From assembly GCA_965287045.1 (NCBI GenBank), contig OZ336885.1:61938001-62002000 (forward strand): a stretch of 64,000 nt of DNA. Reading direction: 5' to 3'. A model generated the notes under the pieces. The model worked only from the letters and a program-made list of their open reading frames with translations, did not search any database and was not told the DNA's origin. Each line of letters opens with the position of its first letter. Positions within the stretch are counted from its first letter, which is position 1. The translations under genes and the position numbers were made by a program. The DNA comes from Carcharhinus amblyrhynchos. Its lineage: Eukaryota. Below are positions 1 to 64,000 of the stretch, one piece after another.

Positions 1-1078
1 AGGGGGAGGAGGGACCTACGGGAGCAGCCAGCCAGGAAGGCGGAGGTTTACTTGAGGAAGCGAGCTCCGTCAAGGGTGGCGAGAGTCAATCAATCTCCAG
101 CCGACTCCGTAAACATGACAAAAGGGGGCCAGAAAAGGCAGAGGCCGATTCTACACTTGAAAAACATAAATACCAGGCTCAGAACCCCAGGATTATGATA
201 GGCGAAACCCCTATTTTAAAACCCTGGACCCCGGGCGAAGCCCGGGATATGATTTCATCAGCCCCTGTTCCAGTTAAAAAGCCAGTGGCCTTTCACAATT
301 GGCTGGAGCAAACCTGTACTATCTATAATCCTTACCTGGTGATATGAGACTGTTGCTGCAGGCAGCTTACGGAGCCTCGTGGCACAGTGTCCGAGACTCG
401 TTCCCAATCCCAGTAGGAGAGAACGGGGACTGGAGGCAGGATAATGAATTACTGGATGAGGGAAATGAGTCTATGGAGCATTGGCTGAAACATAGAGGAA
501 GGGAAGCGATGATGCAGGGGGCTAAGAGACATGGGGACATAGGTGAGGTGACCAGGTGCCGACAGAAAGCTGACGAATCAGTCATGGACTTTGCAGTTAG
601 ATGGAGGGATGTTTGGGAAGAGAATGCCGGGATACCTTTAGATCAGAACCAACCCCTGGCAGTACAGACCCTGTTGAACTGCATGCTCCCCGAGCATGCT
701 AGTACCTACAAAATGAAAGTGTTAGATTGGCAAGGAAAAACATGGACAGAGACGATTACGGTACTAGCTAACCTAGACAGGGAGGGACTGCTCACTCGCA
801 CAGAGGACAGGCTGAGAGTGAGTCAGTTTTACCAGCACGGGGGGAGGGGGAGACCGGGACAGAGAGCAGGAAGCTCTGGACGAATAAAAGGAAAAGGGGG
901 TCGGTGGCCAGCAAAAGACCGGTCCCAGGACGAATGCAGGAATTGTGGAAAAATGGGACACTGGGCTAGGGACTGTAGACTCCCCTCAAAGCGTCACACA
1001 GAAGGGCAGGGTGGGCTTCCCGAGCCCCAGATGGCTCCCCAATTCACTTTTACACAGCCGAACCCCCTCTCCGCATAG
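1..1078 (+). pseudogene. gag: ERV-A gag (capsid and nucleocapsid), partial, frameshift near 330-340
   Basis: KPWTPGE capsid-like start at ~218. ORF 344-1078 contains a single CCHC knuckle CRNCGKMGHWARDC and ends at TAG. Confidence 0.92.
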
Positions 1079-4000
1079 GGGTGCCCCGGGAATGAGGTGG
1101 TACAAGCGGCTGCAATCTGTTTGTCATCTGATACAGAGGAGATACCCATGGCTACCGTGAAAATAGGGGATAGCCATTTGCAGCTGCTGGTGGACACCGG
1201 CGCTACAATGTCCTCCGTACCACTCTCCGCGGGGTTACCAGTTAGCGATTCTACCATAGTCAGCGTGGGAATTGCCGGAATCGCTATGCGCGAATCCCTG
1301 TCCTTACCCGTAGATTTAGAGATCCGAGGTAATAAAATAACAGATACTTTTATCGTTTCTAAAACAGCTCCTATTCCCCTACTGGGAAGAAGCGCTCTCT
1401 GCAAATTAGGGGCCACAATTTACTGTACAGAGGAGGGAATGTTCATGGAACTACCCTCAATACGAGCACACCAGTACTATGCAAATGTTGCCCGACCCGC
1501 TATTCCTGATACTAATAAACCAGAACCGATTTTATATTGCTGGCAGTTGGATGGCAACCCCTATTCACAGCCAGTGCAGAGACTGCTGCTAGCGTTAGAC
1601 CAAATTACGGGTTCGCTATTTGAAGGATTGAAATACATCCTCCAGACGAGCTCCGAAAAAGCACGACTCCACTGTACTGCCCGCTTCATGTATGAAGACA
1701 CGGCAGAATATACTCAGCTGGTACAGTCGCATCTGGGCGCAGAGGACGGCTTGGAAGGATCCCCCCACATATATTTTGGACCCCAAGGGGTGGGGACTGA
1801 GGTCTACCTAACGAAACAACAGCAAGCGCGATTTTGGGAGAACGACTCGATCCCTCATCTTACAATAGCCACAAAACCCCCGGCTGAGAACAGAAAGATC
1901 GGACCTATGATATACCGTTTACAGCAACAGATGCAGGCAGCGGGGTATCAACCTTGGGCGCAGGCTACAGTACCCGTGGGCAGAACTGTCTTCCAGATAG
2001 TCTTTGTTACCCCGACTAGCGGAAGGATCACGGGAATAAAACATTATCATGACGCCATTTTTGAACGACAACAGCCCCCCGGACAGGATGACTGTAAGGT
2101 TCCCCATGCTCTTGTGCAGGTTCCATCCGAACTATGGGCAAAACATAAAAATCACGTCGGAAAGGTCCATTCAGCCATACCCAATCAGGTTACACTCGTA
2201 AAGGGGGCCGTCCTACCCTGTATTTGACAATATCGACTGTCCCCTGAGGCTGAGGACGGAATTGCCCCAGTAATACAGGCGCTGATACAGCAAGGAGTTT
2301 TAGTGGAGACACAAAGTCCTTGCAACACTCCTATTCTGCCTATACCGAAGATTAATAAGCCGGGAGAGTGGCGGTTTGTGCAAGACTTACGGGCCATTAA
2401 TAAGATAGTGACACCCATTGCTCCCGTGGTACCTGACACCAACATGATTCTTTCTTCTATACCGGCGGCAGCGGGGGCATTTTCAGTGGTCGATTTGTGT
2501 TCTGCGTTTTTCTCGATTCCCCTACACCCCGGCAGTCAGTACCTGTTCGCGTTTACCTATAAGAAACGGCAGTACACCTGGACTAGGTTACCTCAAGGGT
2601 ACACTGAGAGCCCCGCCGTATACGCGGCAGCCGTGAAACGGGATTTAGAAGACTGTTCCCTGTCTGACAACTCGGTGTTATTACAGTATGCTGATGATTT
2701 ACTGATTGCTTCCACAAATGGGTTCAGCTGCATGCGGGACACTCTCATTCTGTTGACTCACTTAGCGCAGCGTGGCCATAGGGTGTCCTTGGACAAACTA
2801 CAATTCTGTCAGGAGCAGGTGACCTACCTGGGTTTCTGTTTAACTAGAGGCCAACGGCGGCTGGGGCCAGAACGAATCCAAGTAGTTGTAAATGCCCCCA
2901 TTCCAAAAACTAAAAAGGATGTTTTGTCCTTCCTGGGTATGGTTGGATATTGCCGCCAGTGGATCCCAGACTTCAAGGAATGGGATGCAGTTTTACGCGC
3001 GGCCACAGTCAAGGAAGCCCCTTCCGATATCCGATGGACCCCTGAGCGCGCTGCCGCCTTTAAACAGCTTAAGGAGGCTATGATCAGTGCGCCCGCCCTG
3101 GGGTTGCCCAACTATGTCAAACCCTTTCAACTATTTGTAAATGAACGCCAGGGTTTCGCTGTTGCGGTCCTTACACAGGAACACGGCGGACGACAACGGC
3201 CAGTCGCATACTATTCAGTACTACTCCCTGCGGTGGTGCGAGGGATGCCTGCTTGTCTGCGGGCTGTTGCCGCCACAGCTATCATGGTGGAGAAATCAAT
3301 TCCCATTGTACACCCCTGTACTGTAGTTACGGCTCATGCAGTACTGCTGTTGCTTAACTCTGCCGCCACCCAGCACTTCACAGCATCTCGGCGAACTGGA
3401 TATGAAGTGATCCTCCTCTCTCGTCCCAACTGTACCTACAAGCGGTCGCCCGTAGTTAATCCAGCCACCTATGTGCCCTCACCGGGGGATAGTACAGACA
3501 CTGACACCCATGATTGTTTATTAACGATTCAAACTGCCATTGTTCCCCGGTTGGATTTACAGACTGAGCCTTTTGATAATCCAGATCTTATTTTTTATAC
3601 TGATGGCTCCTCTCACCGGCCAACTGACGATCAACCCCTCGCAGGCTACGCCATAGTCAGCCCGCATGAAACTGTTGAGGCATTCGCTCTTCCCCCTGGC
3701 ACATCAGCCCAGGCAGCAGAATTGTTCGCACTGACACGGGCATGCGTATTGGCCAAAGATACAACCATCAACATTTATACTGACTCGCAGTACGCATTCG
3801 GAGTTGTGCACAATTTCGGTCAGCTGTGGAAAAATCGAGGTTTTATCACCTCGGGGGGGGGGGGGGGGGGGGAAACAAATTAAACACTCTAGATTAGTGC
3901 TGCATCTGCTGGATGCCATCCAGCTGCCATCTAAACTGGCTATAGTGAAATGCCAAGCGCACACACAAGGTGATGACGAAGTTTCCCGGGGAAATGGGCG

Positions 4001-5284
4001 AGCGGACGAGGTTGCCCGTGCTGTCGCGTTGCGGCAATGCCCCATATTACAGATGGTCAACCTCCCCGCGCCCACTTCACCCCCCTCGATGATAAGTGAC
4101 GACCAGCTCATGACAGCCCAGCAGCAGGTTTCCCCCCAGGATCGTCGGTCCTGGGAGCGCGCGGGATGCGGCTTAAAAAACGGGGTCTGGACACACCCAG
4201 ATGGCAGGGTAGTTTGCCCGCGATCTCTGTTTTTGCCCTGGCTCGCCTGGCCCATGGCCAGGCTCACATGGGCAAAGGAGGGATGACTTATAACATAACA
4301 ACACAATGGTATGCACCTGGGGTAACGGTAACTATTGATAAGGTAGTGAGAACATGCCAAATCTGTCAGGTCAATAGCAAGGGGAATACACCGGCCAAGT
4401 ATGATCATTTGCTACAGCCCAGCATGCCATTTGAAAATTTACAAATTGATTTTGTTCACATGCCACTAGCAAGTGGGTATAAGTATCTCTTAGTAATAGT
4501 GGGTATGTTCACCAGATGGGCGGAGGCACACCCTACTAGAAGAGATGATGCCAGGACAGTGGTAAAAACATAATTAAAAGAACTAATACCCAGATACGGA
4601 ATACCAATGGGAATTAATAGCGATAGGGGAACACACTTTACGGGAAAAATAGTGAAAGCTCTAGCCGAAACTTTGGGATTCCAATAGAAGTTGCATATAC
4701 CATACCAGCCCCAGTCAGCGGGAATCGTAGAGAGAGTGAATGGGGAAATAAAAGCAGCATTGAATAAGACCTGTCAGGAAACCGGATTGAAATGGCCTGA
4801 GGCACTTCCCATAGTGATGTACATGCTCAGAAATCAGAAAAACCGAAACACCGGTCTAACACCCCATGAGGCTTTAATGGGTAAGCCAATGCCCACGGGG
4901 ATAAAACCCCCTTTAACACCTGAAAATGTGGCCCTGGTTTGGACGGATGAGACCACCTTAAGGTTTGCTCAGGCCATGTGTGAAACAGCAGCCCGGCTAC
5001 ATACCAAAGTCAGAAAAGCGCAGGCGCCCCTGACAGGGGGAAATATGCATCCTTTTAAACCAGGAGATCAGGTCCTCGTAAAAACGTTAATGAAGGATTC
5101 TTTCTCCCCTAGGTGGAAAGGACCATACCAAGTGCTGCTAACTGCCAGAACTGCGGTGAAGCTGGAGAAGCATCCCGATTGGGTGCACGCCACTCGCTGC
5201 AGACCATACCGCCCAGACATCCGAGCCGGAGAAGAAGGAAGCAGGACAGAGTGTGTAGAAACCTCCAAAAGACACAGAGACTAA
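1079..5284 (+). pseudogene. pol: ERV-A pro-pol: protease, extra domain, RT, RNase H, integrase; disrupted
   Basis: Same frame as gag after the TAG. LVDTGA (~1190), PLLGR, LPQG, YADD (2687-2698), YTDGS/AELFAL/TDSQY RNase H, HHCC, IDF, SDRG, ERVN and WKGPY integrase motifs. Stops at 2225, 4571 and 4686; frameshifts at the poly-G ~3853-3872 and near 4230-4250. Confidence 0.96.
1520..2050 (+). other. Putative 2H phosphoesterase domain in ERV-A Pol
   Basis: LHCTA (His 1670-1672) and PHLTI (His 1856-1858), 62 aa apart; homologous to the ERV-B insert. Confidence 0.8.
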
Positions 5285-5334: not shown

Positions 5335-5487
5335 ATGTATGATCACTGGATTTGCATGCCAAACTGGGTCTTTTACATGTGGATGATTGTGACTTTCTTA
5401 GTTTGCTGTGTGTATTACTCGCTGATAGCAGTAGAAGCTTTTAAGCAAAGGAAAAGGGGGCCGGAACACATTCACTTGATAAAATAA
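5335..5487 (+). CDS. Small 50-aa putative membrane accessory protein between pol and env
   Basis: MYDHWICMPNWVFYMWMIVTFLVCCVYYSLIAVEAFKQRKRGPEHIHLIK: hydrophobic segment followed by a basic cluster; frame differs from both pol and env. Confidence 0.45.
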   Translation: MYDHWICMPNWVFYMWMIVTFLVCCVYYSLIAVEAFKQRKRGPEHIHLIK

Positions 5488-5528
5488 GAGACATTTGTCT
5501 AAAAAAAGACACAACAGGTAAACAAGAC

Positions 5529-7588
5529 ATGATCGGGGCAATTTGGCTATTTTTGGGCTGCCTGCTAGGGGTAGGGGATAGCAGTAACCGCACGACTCTG
5601 GAAAACCTACCCGTAGCCAGGACTAGTTTTGAAGGCAAACTACCTTGCTCGGCCGGTAGATGGATTGCTAACTGTTCAGGGGGATGTGAGATGATAAAAG
5701 TGGGTGGAGGCAGAATTAAGTTTGTAATCCAGCGGAATGGTAGTATGACATTGCGGGTTACTACTACTGGAGGGAATATGAGCTGTCAAGTGGAAACAAA
5801 TGTAAGCAGAACAGGAGATATTGGGTGGTTAAGAGAAAATTGGGTCCACAATTACACGAGAAATAATGAGACCAAGGAATTCCTGGAGGCAGAATTAGAT
5901 CGCACACACTGGTACGGGTGTCAGAACAGCACCCCGAACAAGGAAAGGGATAGTGATAGCTTATGTCTAAAAGGCAACCGATATGGTAGCTTATGGTGGC
6001 TGGAGGAAACAATACAAGAAGAGACGAATACGGGACATATAAGAAGGATGTTTGCCACTTGCACTCCAGTAGTGAGATCCCCCAATGTGCTAAACCTGAC
6101 AGTGGTGATCAGATATGAGAAGCCGAGACCTGATAACTGTAATGTGACCCGGTTGGACATGGTTTTGAGAAAGGAGGGGAAAAGGAAAAGGAGAGACCTT
6201 GTAGGGACTGTGCTAGGAGGTATAGGGACAGGGATGGGGGCCCTAAACTCCATAGACATAGAAACCCTTCAAAACAAAATACAGGCGGTGGGGGGTTTAA
6301 TAGGAGAAGGAATGAAGATAAGAAATGCACGGACTAAAGGCTTGCAAAAGGCACAACTATCCGGGTTCTTAACTAACGAAATGACTTGGAAACACAACGA
6401 AGCGGTAGAAAAAGAAATAGACAAGGTATTGATGAGCCTGACAGCCTTAAACTCCCGGTATACTTACTGTATGATGAAGGAAATAGTACGCCAGCTATTG
6501 CGGGCAGAATTAGAAAGAAAATTTATATCTTTCCATGCCGAAACATGGGAAGGAATGTTGGGGTTCAGACAGAGTAGTGCTTGCAATATAACTGTCAGGC
6601 CTCGCCCAAAGTACACTAGGTGCAACCTGGAGGGATGCAATGTAACAATGGAAGTAGTGAACAGTACTAGGAAGGAGGTCTGGTGCCAGTTCCAAGTACT
6701 ACCCCATTTATTCGGTGCCAATTTTTGGTACCCTATATTTAAAAGGAGCTGGTTGGACGAAAAGAACCTGACCCATTCCTCCACAGGTTGTATTAGCTGA
6801 CCTTTCGGGATGGTATGTCCGTACCAGACCGCTGTTTACGAACCCTGTTCTATGCAACACTCTACCGGGGTATGCCAGTGGGAACTGAGACCCTCTAATG
6901 ACACGGTAATATCAGAAATCGGGGAAAATGAAGTCTGTGTTTCTGGGATCTGGACGGACTCCTGTATAAGCCACCTATTAACAAATGTGTAAAGGGAGTA
7001 TTTACCCTGTACGAACCTCAAAGCCAGCGAACCTATCAATTCGGGCAATGGGAGCAAATGCAGCAACACCTAATGATTCATAACATAGACCCTTTGCCTC
7101 CGGTAGTAAATTTGACAAAACTACATGCATTAATCAGAGAAAGTCGAAAAGTAACAGAGGCCTTTGCTAAGGAGGGGCGAGCCCTTCACCAACTAGTGGT
7201 TGAAATGAGTTACAAGGAGGGACAGTTAGTACGAATATCGGATCGGGTAACCTCCCTTACGACGCACCACTGGTGGGGCGTATTCTATGGCTGGTCCCCT
7301 AAGGCATCAGCCATCTTCAGACTGGCCATTCATCCAATTGTAATACTGGGAGTGGGGCTCCTGCTATTGCTCATAATCATGTGCATCACTTGGGTAAGAG
7401 TGAAGAGGCTGGTAGGACAGGTGCTGGGTTTAATAGCTCAAATGGACGGAAGGTTAATGGCAGTAAGAACCCATGTAGCCAGAATAGGCGAACAATATGA
7501 GGAGTACGACGAGGAAGAGTGTCTAAAAATGAGACCATTCCCCGAGGGATATGACCCTCCCTTTGCCAATTGTACGCCAAGATCTTAG
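5529..7588 (+). pseudogene. env: ERV-A env, about 685 codons, disrupted
   Basis: Signal peptide MIGAIWLFLGCLLGVG, many NxS/T sites, furin site RKRR (6183-6194), fusion peptide DLVGTVLGGIGTGMGAL, TM helix IVILGVGLLLLLIIMCITW. In-frame stops at 6798 and 6990, and a frameshift before 7058. Confidence 0.9.
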
Positions 7589-7611: not shown

Positions 7612-7625
7612 AACAAGGAGGGAAC
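7612..7625 (+). promoter_or_regulatory. ERV-A polypurine tract
   Basis: AACAAGGAGGGAAC directly before the LTR TG. Confidence 0.8.
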
Positions 7626-8227
7626 TGTAGAAGAAATTAGATTCATATAAGCAATTAGGTTGCATAGAAAAGTAAGTCTGTTTTAAACGGACTTACTATA
7701 GTAGGGGCTAAAGCTGCAGCAGTAGCTAAAGAGTTAATGGTTCACTATATACTCACCATTATACCGAAAATCAAGAAACTAGCTGAAGCAGGCAGGGTTA
7801 GAAAAACAGGGCCTAGCAGACACTCAAGGTCTAAAGGCCAGATAACGGGCCATCTGCCTTTAGGAGGATAGAAAATTAAACCACCATTCTTCTCCCCTGT
7901 CTAGTTACGGTAAATCACAAGGGACAGGGACTGTAGGATGATTTAGACCAAGGACACTATAGATAAGTCCTAGGACCATAGTTTTAATTCATGGGACAAT
8001 GATTAAAGGGGTAATAGAGATAGTAAAGATAATAGGGAGTATTGTAACCTGCTTGCAGAGTTGTTTATTTCACTGTATAAAAATAGCGCGGGTTTGTTCA
8101 GAAAATTCAGAGTTCTCTCGGTGTTGACTGAGGTGTACTCTCCGTGATATCACGACAATAAACTCTCCTGACGCCTGACTCTGAACGTCTCTGCCTGAGT
8201 TATTCTGAGCTAGGAATTTCCTCGACA
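7626..8227 (+). repeat. ERV-A 3' LTR (602 bp)
   Basis: Starts TGTAGAAGAAATT and ends AATTTCCTCGACA (11/13 inverted match); TATAAAAA 8076-8083; AATAAA 8157-8162. Confidence 0.9.
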
Positions 8228-29974: not shown

Positions 29975-31690
29975 ATAAGAACATAAGAAATAGGAGCAGG
30001 AGTAGGCCATCTAGCCCTTCGAGCCTACCCCGCCATTCAATAAGATCATGGCTGATCTGTCGTGGCTCAGTTCCACTTTCCCGCCCACTCCCCATAACCC
30101 TTAATCCCCTTGCCTATCAAAAACCTATCAACCCGCGTCTTAAATATATTTAACGAGGCAGCCTCCACCACTTCAACGGGCAGAGAATTCCAGAGATTCA
30201 CCACCCTTTGAGTGAAGAAGTTCCTCCTCAACTTCGTTCTAAACCGCCCCCCCCCCCCCCCCTTTGTCTTGTGGCTGTGCCCTCTAGTCCTACTGTCCTT
30301 TCTGAGCGGGAAGAGCCTCTCCACCTCTATCCTATCCATCCCATTCATCATCTTATATGTCTCAATGAGATCTCCCCTCATTCTTCTAAACTCTAACGAG
30401 TACAAGCCTAGTTTATTCATCCTCTCCTCATAGTTCAACCCCCTCAAATCAGGTACCAGCCTAGTAAACCTCCTCTGCACTCCCTCCAAGGCCAAAATAT
30501 CCTTGCGTAAGTGCGGCGACCAAAACTGCGCTAAGTATTCCAGCTGCGGCCTCACCAGTGCCCTGTACAATTGCAGCAAGACCTCCCTACTTTTATATTC
30601 AACCCCCCATGCTATGAAGACCATCATCCCATTTGCCTTCCTGACCACCTGCTGCACCTGCAGGCTGGGTTTTTGCGACTCATGCACAAGGACCCCGAGG
30701 TCCCTCTGCACCGTTGCATGCTGCAGTTTTTCGCCATGTAAGTAATAGTCCTTCCTACCATTATTCCTACCAAAGTGGACCACCTCGCACTTGCCAACTT
30801 TAAATTCCATTTGCCCGTTCCTGGCCCATTCGCCCAGCCTATCTCGATCCTTCTGCAGACTCTCCACACCCTCCGCACAATTTGCCGTTCCACCAATCTT
30901 GGTGTCATCAGCAAATTTCGACACCATACACTCAGTTCCCTCCTCCAGATCATCTATATAAATGGTAAATAGCTGAGGCCCCAGCACCGACCCCTGGGGC
31001 ACTCCACTAGTCACCTACCGCCAATCCGAATAGCACCCATTGACCCCCACTCTCTGCCTCCTATTTGACAGCCAATCCTCTATCCACGCTAATACCCTAC
31101 CCCCAACTCCATGCACCCTAACCTTCTGTAATAACCTCTTGTGCGGCACCTTATTAAACGCCTTCTGAAAATCAAGAAACACCACATCCACCGGCTCTCC
31201 TTTATCCACCGCCCTAGACACATCCTCATAGAACTCCAATAAATTCGTCAGACATGACTTCCCCTTAATGAAACCGTGCTGCATCTGCTCTATCAAACAA
31301 TTCTCCTCAAGATGCCTCGCTATTTTTTACTTGATCATGGATTCTAACATTTTACTTACAACAGACGTTAAACTAACCGGCCTATAATTCCTTGCCTTTT
31401 GCCTGCCACCCTTCTTAAAAAACGGCGTAACATTAGCCGTTTTCCAATCTTCCGGCACTTCCCCGGAATCCAGCGATGTTTGGAAAATAATCATCAAAGC
31501 ATCCACTATCACCTCCGCCATTTCTTTCAGAACCTTTGGATGCATTCCATCTGGTCCAGGGGACTTGTCCACCATCGGTCCCTCCAGCCTTTCGAGCACT
31601 GCCTCTCTAGTAACAATAATGTCATTCAGGCCCTCCAATCCTACCATCTTTCCATCGCTAACACCCGGGATCATTCCCTGGGATCCGAAT
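29975..31690 (-). mobile_element. Young 5'-truncated CR1 LINE (ORF2 C-half nearly intact)
   Basis: ORFs 31327-31701, 31015-31296 and 30067-31014: KSPGPDG, NYRPVSLTS, DFQKAF, GVPQGSVLGP, FADDTK; 3' tandem ATAAGAAC tail. Confidence 0.97.
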
Positions 31691-61147: not shown

Positions 61148-61438
61148 CTATTTCGCAAACTGACAGGTTTCAATTTCGACCAGGGTCATTGTGAATTCAT
61201 CCAGCGGGGGCAGTTCAATGTTTCCCCATTCCTTAGTTGTCCCTCCCGAACGTGGGTTGCCTGTCACTTGTGTCACCATTTGTCGCACTGCCAATCTAGC
61301 AAGGAGGGATCTCAAGACAGGTAAAAAACAGCAAAATATTAATCCCAGGATGGTTATTGTCATGGCTGTCACAACTCCAGCTTTAGCAAACCAGGCCCCC
61401 ATCTTCCTAACATATTGTCCAGCCAATTCCATACCCCA
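61148..61438 (-). pseudogene. env: ERV-B env C-terminal remnant (membrane-proximal region, TM, tail)
   Basis: GVWNWLDNMLGRWG, then a frameshift into AWFAKAGVVTAMTITILGLIFCCFLPVLRSLL. Confidence 0.85.
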
Positions 61439-63581
61439 TTGTGACTGTGGCTGCCTTTTCGTATGCCCACCAAGCTGCTGCCAGACCTTGATAGCAAGGA
61501 GGATACCCCATTGCTACGTCGTCTAGCTTGGTGCTGTAATATGCTACAGCCTGCCTTCGTTTGCCCTTGCAATTTTCCTGCATTAACACTGCTGTAGCAA
61601 ACCCTGCTTCTCTGTTACTCACAAATAATTCAAAAGGTTTGTCATAGGTTGGTAAAGCCAATGCTGGTGCCTGTGCCATTTCTTTCTTTATATTCTCAAA
61701 TGCTTCTGAAGCATCTTTGTCCCATTTTAGTTTGGCTTTTAATTCTTCACACCCTGCCTCTTGCATTATCTTTCGTAGTGCCTGTGTTTTTTCTGCATAG
61801 CTTTCCACCCATTCGGAACTGAATCCTGTCATTCCCAAAAATGTCATCATTTGCCCCACCGTCTGTGGTTTCGGAACTTTTAATACTGCTTCTATTTGCT
61901 GTGAAACTATCCCCTTGTGCCCTGCTGATATCTCTCTCCCCAAGTATTCTACTTTTTCCTGGCACAACTGCAGCTTTTTCCTGGATACTTTGTGACCCCC
62001 TTCTGCTAATCTTTCGAATAGTTTTAAACTGTCCTTCCTGCATTGCTCTCTTGTCTCTGCGCATAATAATAAATCATCCACATACTGTATCAATGTTCCC
62101 TCCAACTGTATCCCCTCCAAATCTGCCCTCAACACCTGGTTGAATGCATGTGGGGAATGCTTGAATCCTTGGGGCATCCTGTTATACGTGTATTGTTTCC
62201 CTTCAAACGTAAATGCAAAGAGATACTGGCTTTCTTGGGCTAGCGGCACGCTAAAAAATGCTGAGCATAGGTCTACTACAGTGAACCATCTGCTTTCAGG
62301 CGGTATATTAGTCAACAGGGTGTAGGGGTTGGGAACCTCTACTGGCATGTCTTCCACTACCTCATTTACTGCCCTCAAGTCATGCACCAATCTCCATTTT
62401 TCCCCATCCGCCTTTTTTACCGGTAGCAGTGGTGTGTTACACTTGCTCCGAGTTTCCTTTAATACCCCTGCTTCTATCAGTCCCCTAATTGTTCCTCTAA
62501 TTCCCTCAATTGCTTCTGCCTTAATCGGATACTGTGGTCTGTAAGGTCCTTGTCGTCCGGTCTTTAGTCTAACCTCCACTGGATTAGCATTTCTAACCCT
62601 CCCCACATCAGTGTCCTGTCTGGACCACAACTCCTGTGGGAGGGAATTCAAATCCTCTTCTAAGCTCTCTCTCCACTCCTGCTCCTGCTTCTCAATCTCT
62701 GCCTCTATTTTTACCTGTTTTGTCTTCCCGATCATTTTAACATCCACGATTATCTTCAACATTTGTCCATTACTGGACGTCCAAATATCTACGTTTTCTG
62801 TCTGAACAAATTCTAATTCCCGTGCCCTCAGTACCATTGGTCCTAGGTCTTTTGATCTGTGTCCCGGATTCACTTTTAATGTAACATGTGGTTCCGACCC
62901 AGATACAGAGAACCATTTGTTAACCCATTCATCCCTCACGACCGTGAGGGCCGCTCCCTCTGGGCCAACTAAAATACTTTCCGACCTTATCTCCTGTTCT
63001 CGTCCTGCCTCCTTTTCCCATTTCTCCTGTATCTCGGGTTTCTGTTCTTCATCAAATATCATTGTGCTGTGCAGTTCTGTCCTTGGCCATTCGGCCTGTG
63101 GAACCCAAGTATCTATCAGCTCCCCCCAAACTTCCCATACCTGTTTTTTAACTTGCTCCTCTATGTCTCCCAACCAGTACACATTAACCCCTTCCTTTCC
63201 TGGTACTCCGAGTAAATACACTCCCATCAAACCAATTCCTTGTTCTGTACATTCTAATTTTAGTCCTAAACCTAAGATTGCATCTCTTCCTAATAAATTT
63301 AATGGCGTTCTATCACACACTAATATAGGTACATGAGTAGTTTTGCTTCCAATGGTGACAGGTACCGGCGTTGTCATCTGAGTTAACGTTACTTTCCCCG
63401 AGAACCCCACAGTTTTCACAAACTGGTTTGATAATGGTAGGTGATTCGCATATTTTGTTTGTATGCACGTACACGTGGCGCCGGTGTCTATCATCATGGG
63501 GACCTCAACCCCTCCTACTCTAACACTAATTATGGGTTCCTGATCTGCTGTATCTGTTATTTGTACGTACTGTCCTACCAT
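61432..63581 (-). pseudogene. pol: ERV-B pro-pol (protease, 2H-like domain, RT, connection), truncated by deletion
   Basis: Open ORF 61407-63581: MIDTGA, NLLGRD, MPQG, YVDD (62084-62073), VAYYS; RNase H and integrase absent. Confidence 0.95.
62720..63190 (-). other. Putative 2H phosphoesterase domain in ERV-B Pol
   Basis: LHSTM (His 63071-63069) and PHVTL (His 62888-62886), 61 aa apart. Confidence 0.82.
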
Positions 63582-63601
63582 TTCAGGGTTCTCTGGGCCC
63601 C

Positions 63602-64000
63602 CTATAGGGAGCTCTGAAAATTCACAGGTCCCTGCAGCACGGGGGTGTTATTCAACGGCATTTGCGCCATTTGCTGGCCTATCTGCTGCTGGTTTTCTCC
63701 CTGCCTGTAAGAGTTCTGTGGGCAATTTCTTTTTATATGTCCTGCTTCCCCGCACCCCCAGCATACGCCTGGAGGGCCAGGCGGCGGTCCCTGCCTTGGA
63801 AGCTGCTGATTTCCCTGTCCCTGTCCTCTCTGATTCTGATAGGGTGGCCTACCACCTCCTTGTCCTTTCCCATTTCTATTCCAGTCAGTCTGATTTTGTG
63901 GGGTATAAGGGTGTTGATAATTTAAGCCATAGCCTCCTGGGTTCATGGACAGCGGGAAGGCAGAAATGTTGTAGGTTATGATGGGCTGGCCTCCATCTCC
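63602..64000 (-). CDS. gag: ERV-B gag C-terminus (nucleocapsid), partial
   Basis: Q/G/P-rich region, CCHC knuckle CWGCGEAGHIKRNC, TAG stop. Confidence 0.9.
   Translation of the reverse strand, partial: GDGGQPIITYNISAFPLSMNPGGYGLNYQHPYTPQNQTDWNRNGKGQGGGRPPYQNQRGQGQGNQQLPRQGPPPGPPGVCWGCGEAGHIKRNCPQNSYRQGENQQQIGQQMAQMPLNNTPVLQGPVNFQSSL

Follow-up and report, generated by a model that had tools for sequence, protein, structure and literature searches.

Extra enzymes are rare in retroviruses. The best-known of them is dUTPase, which betaretroviruses and non-primate lentiviruses carry as an insertion in pro or pol and which brought to light a host pressure on reverse transcription. In fishes, a 2H domain in retroviruses is mentioned in section 3.4.5 of PMC9503650, which cites Mazumder 2002, and section 7 of PMC4977317, citing Basta 2009, states that some endogenous retroviruses (ERVs) of ray-finned fishes encode a CNPase or a macro domain; PMC8672886 cites Basta without naming CNPase. 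The present analysis concerns a domain of this type in an ERV of the shark Carcharhinus amblyrhynchos, most of which occupies the first 8.2 kb, on the plus strand, of a stretch of 64,000 nucleotides (contig OZ336885.1 of assembly GCA_965287045.1, positions 61,938,001 to 62,002,000; hereafter the window), as delimited from stop-to-stop frames and Pfam matches. An earlier reading of the window (hereafter the original prediction) had mentioned 2H domains in fish retroviral polyproteins, rightly so according to the sections of PMC9503650 and PMC4977317 given above.

The domain type is therefore already known, its existence is not new, and the ERV of the window is a further member, whose host group may extend the published range of such domains. 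No functional test of a retroviral 2H or CNPase domain was found in a literature search that covered few subscription journals. Profile comparisons and a predicted fold suggest that the domain encoded at positions 1496-2080 of the window is distantly related to the catalytic part of cellular CNPase; it likely acted as a polyprotein-borne 2',3'-cyclic phosphodiesterase and, being polyprotein-borne, was probably carried in the virion. We assign this reading a probability of roughly 0.6.

A selected domain between protease and reverse transcriptase

An open frame at 1079-2227 on the plus strand begins directly after the TAG codon that ends gag (1076-1078). It comprises a protease, a stretch of about 195-210 amino acids (aa) without any Pfam assignment, and the N-terminal lead-in segment of reverse transcriptase (RT). 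The features on which the analysis centres are the following:

1136-1420, plus strand: retroviral aspartic protease (Pfam RVP, E 1.4e-08, aa 19-113 of the frame 1082-2224; DTG at 1184-1207)
1496-2080, plus strand: putative CNPase-like 2H phosphoesterase domain of about 195 aa, proposed from its relatives, a profile search of PDB, a fold search and the ratio of nonsynonymous to synonymous substitution rates (dN/dS)
1664-1687, plus strand: motif 1, RLHCTARF (His198 codon at 1670-1672; codon of the aromatic residue at His+5 at 1685-1687)
1847-1870, plus strand: motif 2, SIPHLTIA (His260 codon at 1856-1858)
2225-2227, plus strand: in-frame TGA that cuts Pro-Pol in the window copy (sense codon in L002, L003, L008 and L010, other copies in the same genome)
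About 62643-63188, minus strand: CNPase-like domain of a second, unrelated-looking ERV, between protease and RT in the open frame 61410-63647

The original prediction had described an insert between protease and RT by four motifs, and all of them are present in the frame 1079-2227, IYFGPQGVG (1769-1795) and IGPMI (1898-1912) in addition to motifs 1 and 2. The frame had been said to start at 1097, and this start has to be moved to 1079. The insert had been placed at 1520-2050, a correct location with slightly narrow borders, since the domain runs from about 1496 to 2080. The expected pair of His-x-Thr/Ser motifs is found as H198-C-T200 and H260-L-T262 (numbering of the frame 1079-2227), 62 residues apart. 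In L002, L003, L008 and L010 no TGA occupies the position equivalent to 2225-2227, and the frame continues into RT. Since these copies read a sense codon there, the insert is a domain of one Pro-Pol polyprotein with the order protease, insert and RT (PR-X-RT).

In the host genome (2.9 Gb), 17 matches to the insert were detected, ranging from 100% down to 36% identity and lying in an ERV context wherever this was examined. Searching 1.84 billion representative proteins exhaustively with phmmer returned 14 matches at E<=0.001, ten of them true relatives and four repeat-protein noise; the best relative (E 6.7e-37, 44% identity), a sawshark protein according to its source, has the PR-X-RT order. 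With a domain-only profile built from 13 sequences (A3), 29 proteins of about the same length and 48 longer proteins were recovered, nearly all of which, where named, are "uncharacterized" or Pol-like proteins of teleosts. The same PR-X-RT order appears in the 48 longer proteins, which carry precomputed Pfam RVP, RVT, RNase H and rve matches, and, in an alignment (A4), in P0002, P0005, P0013, P0017, P0025, P0027 and P0028. Longer proteins had been sought earlier with a single sequence in a word-indexed search, and none were found. A single-protein query of the IMG/VR viral contigs returned 53 pattern matches and no relative, a result of little weight given that this collection consists mostly of phages. 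Altogether, 85 of the 89 proteins retrieved fit the family profile, with the PR-X-RT order wherever the flanks are visible.

Among the 71 proteins in which both motif regions are covered, 65 retain the two H-x-[ST] motifs; the six exceptions are P0005, P0009, P0015, P0048, P0084 and P0085. In motif 1, the His, the Thr and an aromatic residue (Tyr or Phe; F203 in the window) are each conserved in 80/83 relatives; in motif 2, the His is found in 72/73 and Ser or Thr in 71/73. The layout recurs in a third ERV lineage that is more decayed and more divergent (L013, G000:C2:13160000-13167000; 36% identity). Its domain lies at positions 3249-3689 of that locus, where C-C-T replaces H-C-T in motif 1 and PHLTIA is kept in motif 2.

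The second ERV of the window is 23% identical to the first over protease and insert. Its frame has Pfam RVP and RVT_1 matches at aa 35-131 and aa 410-572, and profile A3 matches the gap between them at E 7e-25, with the motifs LHSTMIF and PHVTLKV. This second domain has at least 126 matches in the genome, the last few of which are cross-matches to the first family. The second family is much younger than the first, since many of its matches are 95-99% identical and lie in long open frames, and it is also much larger.

Selection on the insert was estimated by the Nei-Gojobori method for 9 of the 36 possible pairs among nine of the twelve own-genome loci (L010-L012, frameshifted or partial, were excluded), with gapped and stop codons skipped. 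Between sublineages, the dN/dS of the insert ranged from 0.10 to 0.28, with values for the window copy of 0.25 against L006, 0.21 against L008, 0.20 against L007 and 0.10 against L009. For comparison, the protease gave 0.10-0.14 and RT 0.02-0.03, but the synonymous distances (dS) of RT are saturated. The young pair L008 and L007 gave a ratio of 0.91 for the insert, in line with neutral decay of integrated copies. The low ratios between sublineages thus reveal purifying selection on the domain while the virus replicated, and the insert between protease and RT is a real, selected domain.

One of the loci compared, L006 (G000:C52:2391187-2394771), has the look of a mosaic. In protease and insert it lies near the window copy (dS 0.17-0.31), and in RT it lies near L008 (dS 0.07) and far from the window copy (dS saturated). 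The pattern suggests recombination between ERV sublineages.

Proposed relationship to the CNPase/RICH catalytic domain

The search of PDB with profile A3 gave 22 matches at E<=10, and all 22 were CNPase catalytic domains or goldfish RICH (2i3e, goldfish RICH, E 0.0018; human 1woj, E 0.019; mouse, E about 0.08). The alignment spans motif 1, with lhcT..f placed on LHCTTKF, and the strand-turn-helix stretch vGpxGvaaevrLTkeQ. With a second domain-only profile of 17 sequences (A6), 23 of 24 PDB matches were CNPase or RICH, and motif 2 fell on HVTLG of RICH in a second, weak segment. The host itself has a CNP gene (G000:C27:29377286-29386137, minus strand), with exons that read YYFGWFL, LHCTTKF and SHITLAC. 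Alignment of A3 with the last exon of the gene by hhalign (E 1.1e-4, probability 56%) placed motif 2 on SHITLAC. The host CNP gene is the likely donor type for the viral domain, and is far too diverged from it to be a recent source. In addition, the ESM-Atlas feature neighbours of the domain are 2H clusters (tRNA_lig_CPD and 2H-SAK), with scores of 0.94-0.96.

Other queries of the PDB sequences did not recover this relationship. Single-domain phmmer returned noise alone (E 0.8 and 1.4), as did a profile of six own-genome sequences (Nip7 and Ycf48, E>=0.19). A profile with full-length flanks (A2) recovered reverse transcriptases alone, owing to its RT tails, and the domain-only profiles A3 and A6 were therefore used.

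The fold was predicted with AlphaFold2 from an alignment (A5) of 45 sequences: the window sequence, four further copies from the host genome and 40 relatives from the databases. The alignment excluded the four noise matches, proteins that were partial or duplicated, and the majority of the Pol proteins above 700 aa. The resulting model has a mean predicted local distance difference test score (pLDDT) of 60.3 and a predicted template modelling score of 0.62, and is best over residues 100-160. A model built from six near-identical own-genome sequences was unusable (pLDDT 37). In a Foldseek search of PDB with the A5 model, which yielded no match at E<=0.001, the first 48 matches listed were all CNPase or RICH (best E 1.2e-3, template modelling (TM) score 0.47), followed by a fungal tRNA-ligase kinase/CPD structure and the cyclic phosphodiesterase of Arabidopsis. 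The AlphaFold and Foldseek check proposed with the original prediction thus came out in favour of CNPase/RICH at the top of the matches listed, though short of that E-value.

A comparison with 48,161 representative chains by VIA-align ranked mouse CNPase (2xmi_A) first, with Z 8.9, a root-mean-square deviation (rmsd) of 3.8 A and 160 aligned residues. This was the sole chain with Z>=5, and the alignment placed residues 14-186 of the model on 160-357 of 2xmi, ranges that include the two motifs of each protein. With one exception, we recognise the chains at ranks 2-18 (Z 4.3-3.2) as 2H enzymes. They include ns2 of mouse hepatitis virus (MHV), Usb1, drCPDase, a phage phosphodiesterase, ASCC1, rotavirus VP3, AKAP18, Acb1, LigT, a phosphoesterase (4qak) and a plant CPDase. 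For the ns2, VP3 and AKAP7-like branch, the scores were Z 4.3 for 4z5v, 3.8 for 4rpt and 2vfk, and 3.6 for 6o3v, and reflect no more than the common superfamily fold. The match to 2xmi_A is credible because of the gap to the second rank, the coverage of the domain and the agreement with the independent sequence profile.

The insert is thus predicted to adopt a 2H fold, as had been proposed, with CNPase at the top of the Foldseek matches and at Z 8.9 in VIA-align. Judged from profiles and model, its nearest relative is the catalytic domain of CNPase/RICH and not the viral 2-5A (2',5'-oligoadenylate) phosphodiesterases. The likeness to a broad set of 2H enzymes claimed at the outset accordingly stands for the superfamily and for CNPase, whereas the viral 2-5A and cyclic-dinucleotide nucleases on that list match at just Z 3.0-4.3.

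At the level of residues, the chemistry of CNPase depends on a pair of motifs of the form His-X-Thr-X, and the base of the substrate is sandwiched by Phe235 and Val321; Phe235 is required for substrate stacking, Tyr168 touches the ribose and Arg307 tunes binding (PMC4643303, sections 4, 6, 7 and 11). The window sequence H198-C-T200-A-R-F203 has an aromatic residue at the position of CNPase Phe235.

Several observations weigh against the proposed relationship and should be considered together. The model is of moderate quality, with pLDDT below 50 around motif 1 (residues 66-78) and at the C-terminal end. The Foldseek superpositions have TM scores of 0.40-0.49 and an rmsd of about 8 A, and best Z values of 7-8 are common in VIA-align for models without clear matches. 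At the sequence level, the E-values to CNPase are marginal (0.0018-0.08), Pfam gave nothing for the window domain at E<=10, and the cut-off of the CNPase family PF05881 (25 bits) was reached by no relative, the best being P0012 with a sub-threshold match (E 0.011, 15.7 bits). Likewise, precomputed PF05881 is absent from all 77 database matches. Two residues also depart from the CNPase pattern. The one preceding the second His is Pro in 71/73 relatives, where CNPase has Arg307, and the Tyr of the Tyr-Trp pair in the first strand (72/75 relatives), the candidate equivalent of CNPase Tyr168, is offset by one residue from the host YYFGWFL.

Putative function and competing explanations

The proposed history would begin with the capture, by an ancestral fish retrovirus, of a CNP/RICH-like host catalytic domain without its N-terminal domain and membrane anchor. 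In its present place, the domain would be made solely within Gag-Pro-Pol, through read-through of the gag TAG, and would therefore be packaged in low copy like protease, RT and integrase. There, it would open the 2',3'-cyclic phosphates of nucleotides or RNA ends to leave a 2'-phosphate and a free 3'-OH. The benefit that we favour is that, while the virus enters the cell and reverse-transcribes, products of host metal-independent RNases would be undone or a nucleotide signal removed.

Two alternatives keep an enzymatic role and change the substrate. The domain could be a 2',5'-phosphodiesterase like coronavirus ns2 and the C-terminal domain of rotavirus VP3 (VP3-CTD), which would degrade 2-5A and so block the OAS-RNase L pathway. 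Both MHV ns2 (Z 4.3) and rotavirus VP3 (Z 3.8 and 3.6) appear among the structural matches, and the presence of OAS1_C exons in the host indicates that the sensor of the pathway is there. Nevertheless, we regard this activity as improbable, because the match to CNPase is far stronger (Z 8.9 versus 4.3), the sequence profiles A3 and A6 point to CNPase/RICH, and the same domain is common in ERVs of teleosts, hosts that are not known to have OAS. If its targets were instead cyclic immune messengers of the cGAMP type (di- or oligonucleotides), the domain would be a nuclease comparable to phage Acb1 and the poxvirus cGAMP phosphodiesterases. A virion-borne antagonist of cGAS-STING would be sensible for a reverse-transcribing virus, and the fold is common to Acb1 (7t27, Z 3.5) and the penguinpox enzyme (9bkq, Z 3.0). 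These matches are weak, however, no better than those to other 2H families, and the sequence has no sign of cyclic-dinucleotide binding, so that this substrate class seems quite improbable.

The remaining alternatives dispense with catalysis or with the domain itself. A spacer or fold that serves Pro-Pol processing, or a decoy for host CNP, would fit the loss of the N-terminal domain and C-terminal tail of CNPase, and the decoy is made plausible by the report of host CNP as a binder of HIV-1 Gag that blocks assembly (tabled as a binder of the matrix part, MA, that inhibits particle formation, in PMC7471995). A role of this kind would not require the catalytic motifs and the stacking aromatic residue, and their conservation (65/71 and 80/83, respectively) argues against it; we consider it very improbable. 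That the two HxT motifs are a chance pair, or that a host exon was joined to the ERV by misassembly, finds nothing in its favour except the absent Pfam match. It is rejected as having next to no chance, given the 17 matches in the same genome with their ERV context where examined, the second ERV family, in which the domain is present in at least 120 copies, and the relatives at the same PR-X-RT place in many fish species.

Returning to the CNPase-derived phosphodiesterase, a bolder version of the proposal would see in it a Pol enzyme of the retroviruses of cartilaginous and bony fishes, delivered by the virion as a counter-defence that strips the 2',3'-cyclic phosphates left by host antiviral RNases; as an example, a usable 3'-OH may be restored on cleaved primer tRNA or genomic RNA. 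We put this version forward tentatively and hold it to be unlikely. If true, it would define a class of retroviral accessory enzymes on a par with dUTPase, and one still active here in a young family with more than 100 copies. Purifying selection on the domain in many ERV lineages of fishes, including the recently expanded family of this genome, points to a host pressure on 2',3'-cyclic phosphate RNA ends or nucleotides during infection. To our knowledge, and as far as our literature search went, the host pressure behind a retroviral CNPase-like domain has not been identified so far. The domain is small and easily expressed, which makes the question of its function directly testable.

The provirus, neighbouring elements and known systems

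The provirus that carries the first domain has the gene order gag, protease, RT/RNase H, integrase and env, as deduced from frames and Pfam matches. In addition to the features given above, it comprises:

1-1078, plus strand: gag, which begins upstream of the window and ends with the TAG at 1076-1078 (zinc knuckle PF00098 match in 329-1075)
2228-3883, plus strand: RT and RNase H (Pfam RVT_1, E 2.1e-25; RNase_H, E 2.8e-15)
3735-5284, plus strand: end of RNase H and integrase, in three frames (3735-4286, 4100-4573 and 4688-5284; Integrase_H2C2, rve and MLVIN_C)
5445-7588, plus strand: env, in two frames (5445-6800 and 6932-7588; weak GP41 match in the second piece only, E 0.015, below the cut-off)
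7623-8227, plus strand: 3' long terminal repeat (LTR), whose 5' partner lies 1.0-1.6 kb upstream of the window (G000:C16:61936429-61937033)

The assignment of env rests mainly on its position, given the sub-threshold GP41 match. The LTRs were recognised by blastn of 7623-8227 against the upstream stretch, as a direct repeat of 605 bp with 98.0% identity that can thus be taken as the two LTRs of the provirus; the pair differs at about 12 of the 605 positions, and integration was therefore not recent. The gag frame is broken near 329-347, where other copies read through; L014 shows this frame change as well as the part of gag upstream of the window. This frame change, the TGA in Pro-Pol, the spread of RNase H and integrase over several frames and the split of env into two indicate that the window copy is dead.

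Elsewhere in the window, a frame of 315 aa at 30070-31014 (minus strand) has a partial RVT_1 match (E 1.8e-09) and is probably a fragment of a LINE (long interspersed nuclear element) or other retroelement. In the host genome, seven matches to OAS1_C exons were found, located at G000:C20:17137609-17176115, which holds at least two OAS-like genes, and at C5:82169466-82169669 (one match).

Full-length CNPase consists of an N-terminal kinase-like domain, the catalytic domain and a C-terminal lipid/membrane anchor. The viral domain directly follows a protease and runs into RT within a retroviral polyprotein, without the N-terminal domain or the C-terminal anchor and tail of this architecture. It resembles CNPase in the order of its two H-x-T motifs, in the H-C-T-x-x-aromatic sequence of motif 1 (LHCTTKF in the host), in a G-x-x-V-x-L-T-x-x-Q stretch after the central strand and in its best fold match, and differs from it in its low identity (about 15-18%, below the Pfam threshold) and in the Pro that replaces Arg before the second His.

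Among viral systems, the retrieved Pol proteins of teleosts have their domain in the same PR-X-RT slot, whereas the lineage of the window is only about 20% identical to the teleost domains and has its closest relative in a sawshark. MHV ns2, rotavirus VP3-CTD, phage Acb1 and the poxvirus cGAMP phosphodiesterase are likewise virus-encoded, with a 2H fold and two H-x-S/T motifs, but they are weak structural matches (Z 3.0-4.3) without any match to the sequence profiles. The viral 2H immune antagonists belong to LigT/AKAP7-like branches, not to the CNPase branch. Finally, the domain differs from retroviral dUTPase in fold, chemistry and insertion point. The two would have in common that each is a small enzyme of nucleotide metabolism that stems from the cell, forms an additional part of the retroviral polyprotein and is packaged together with it.

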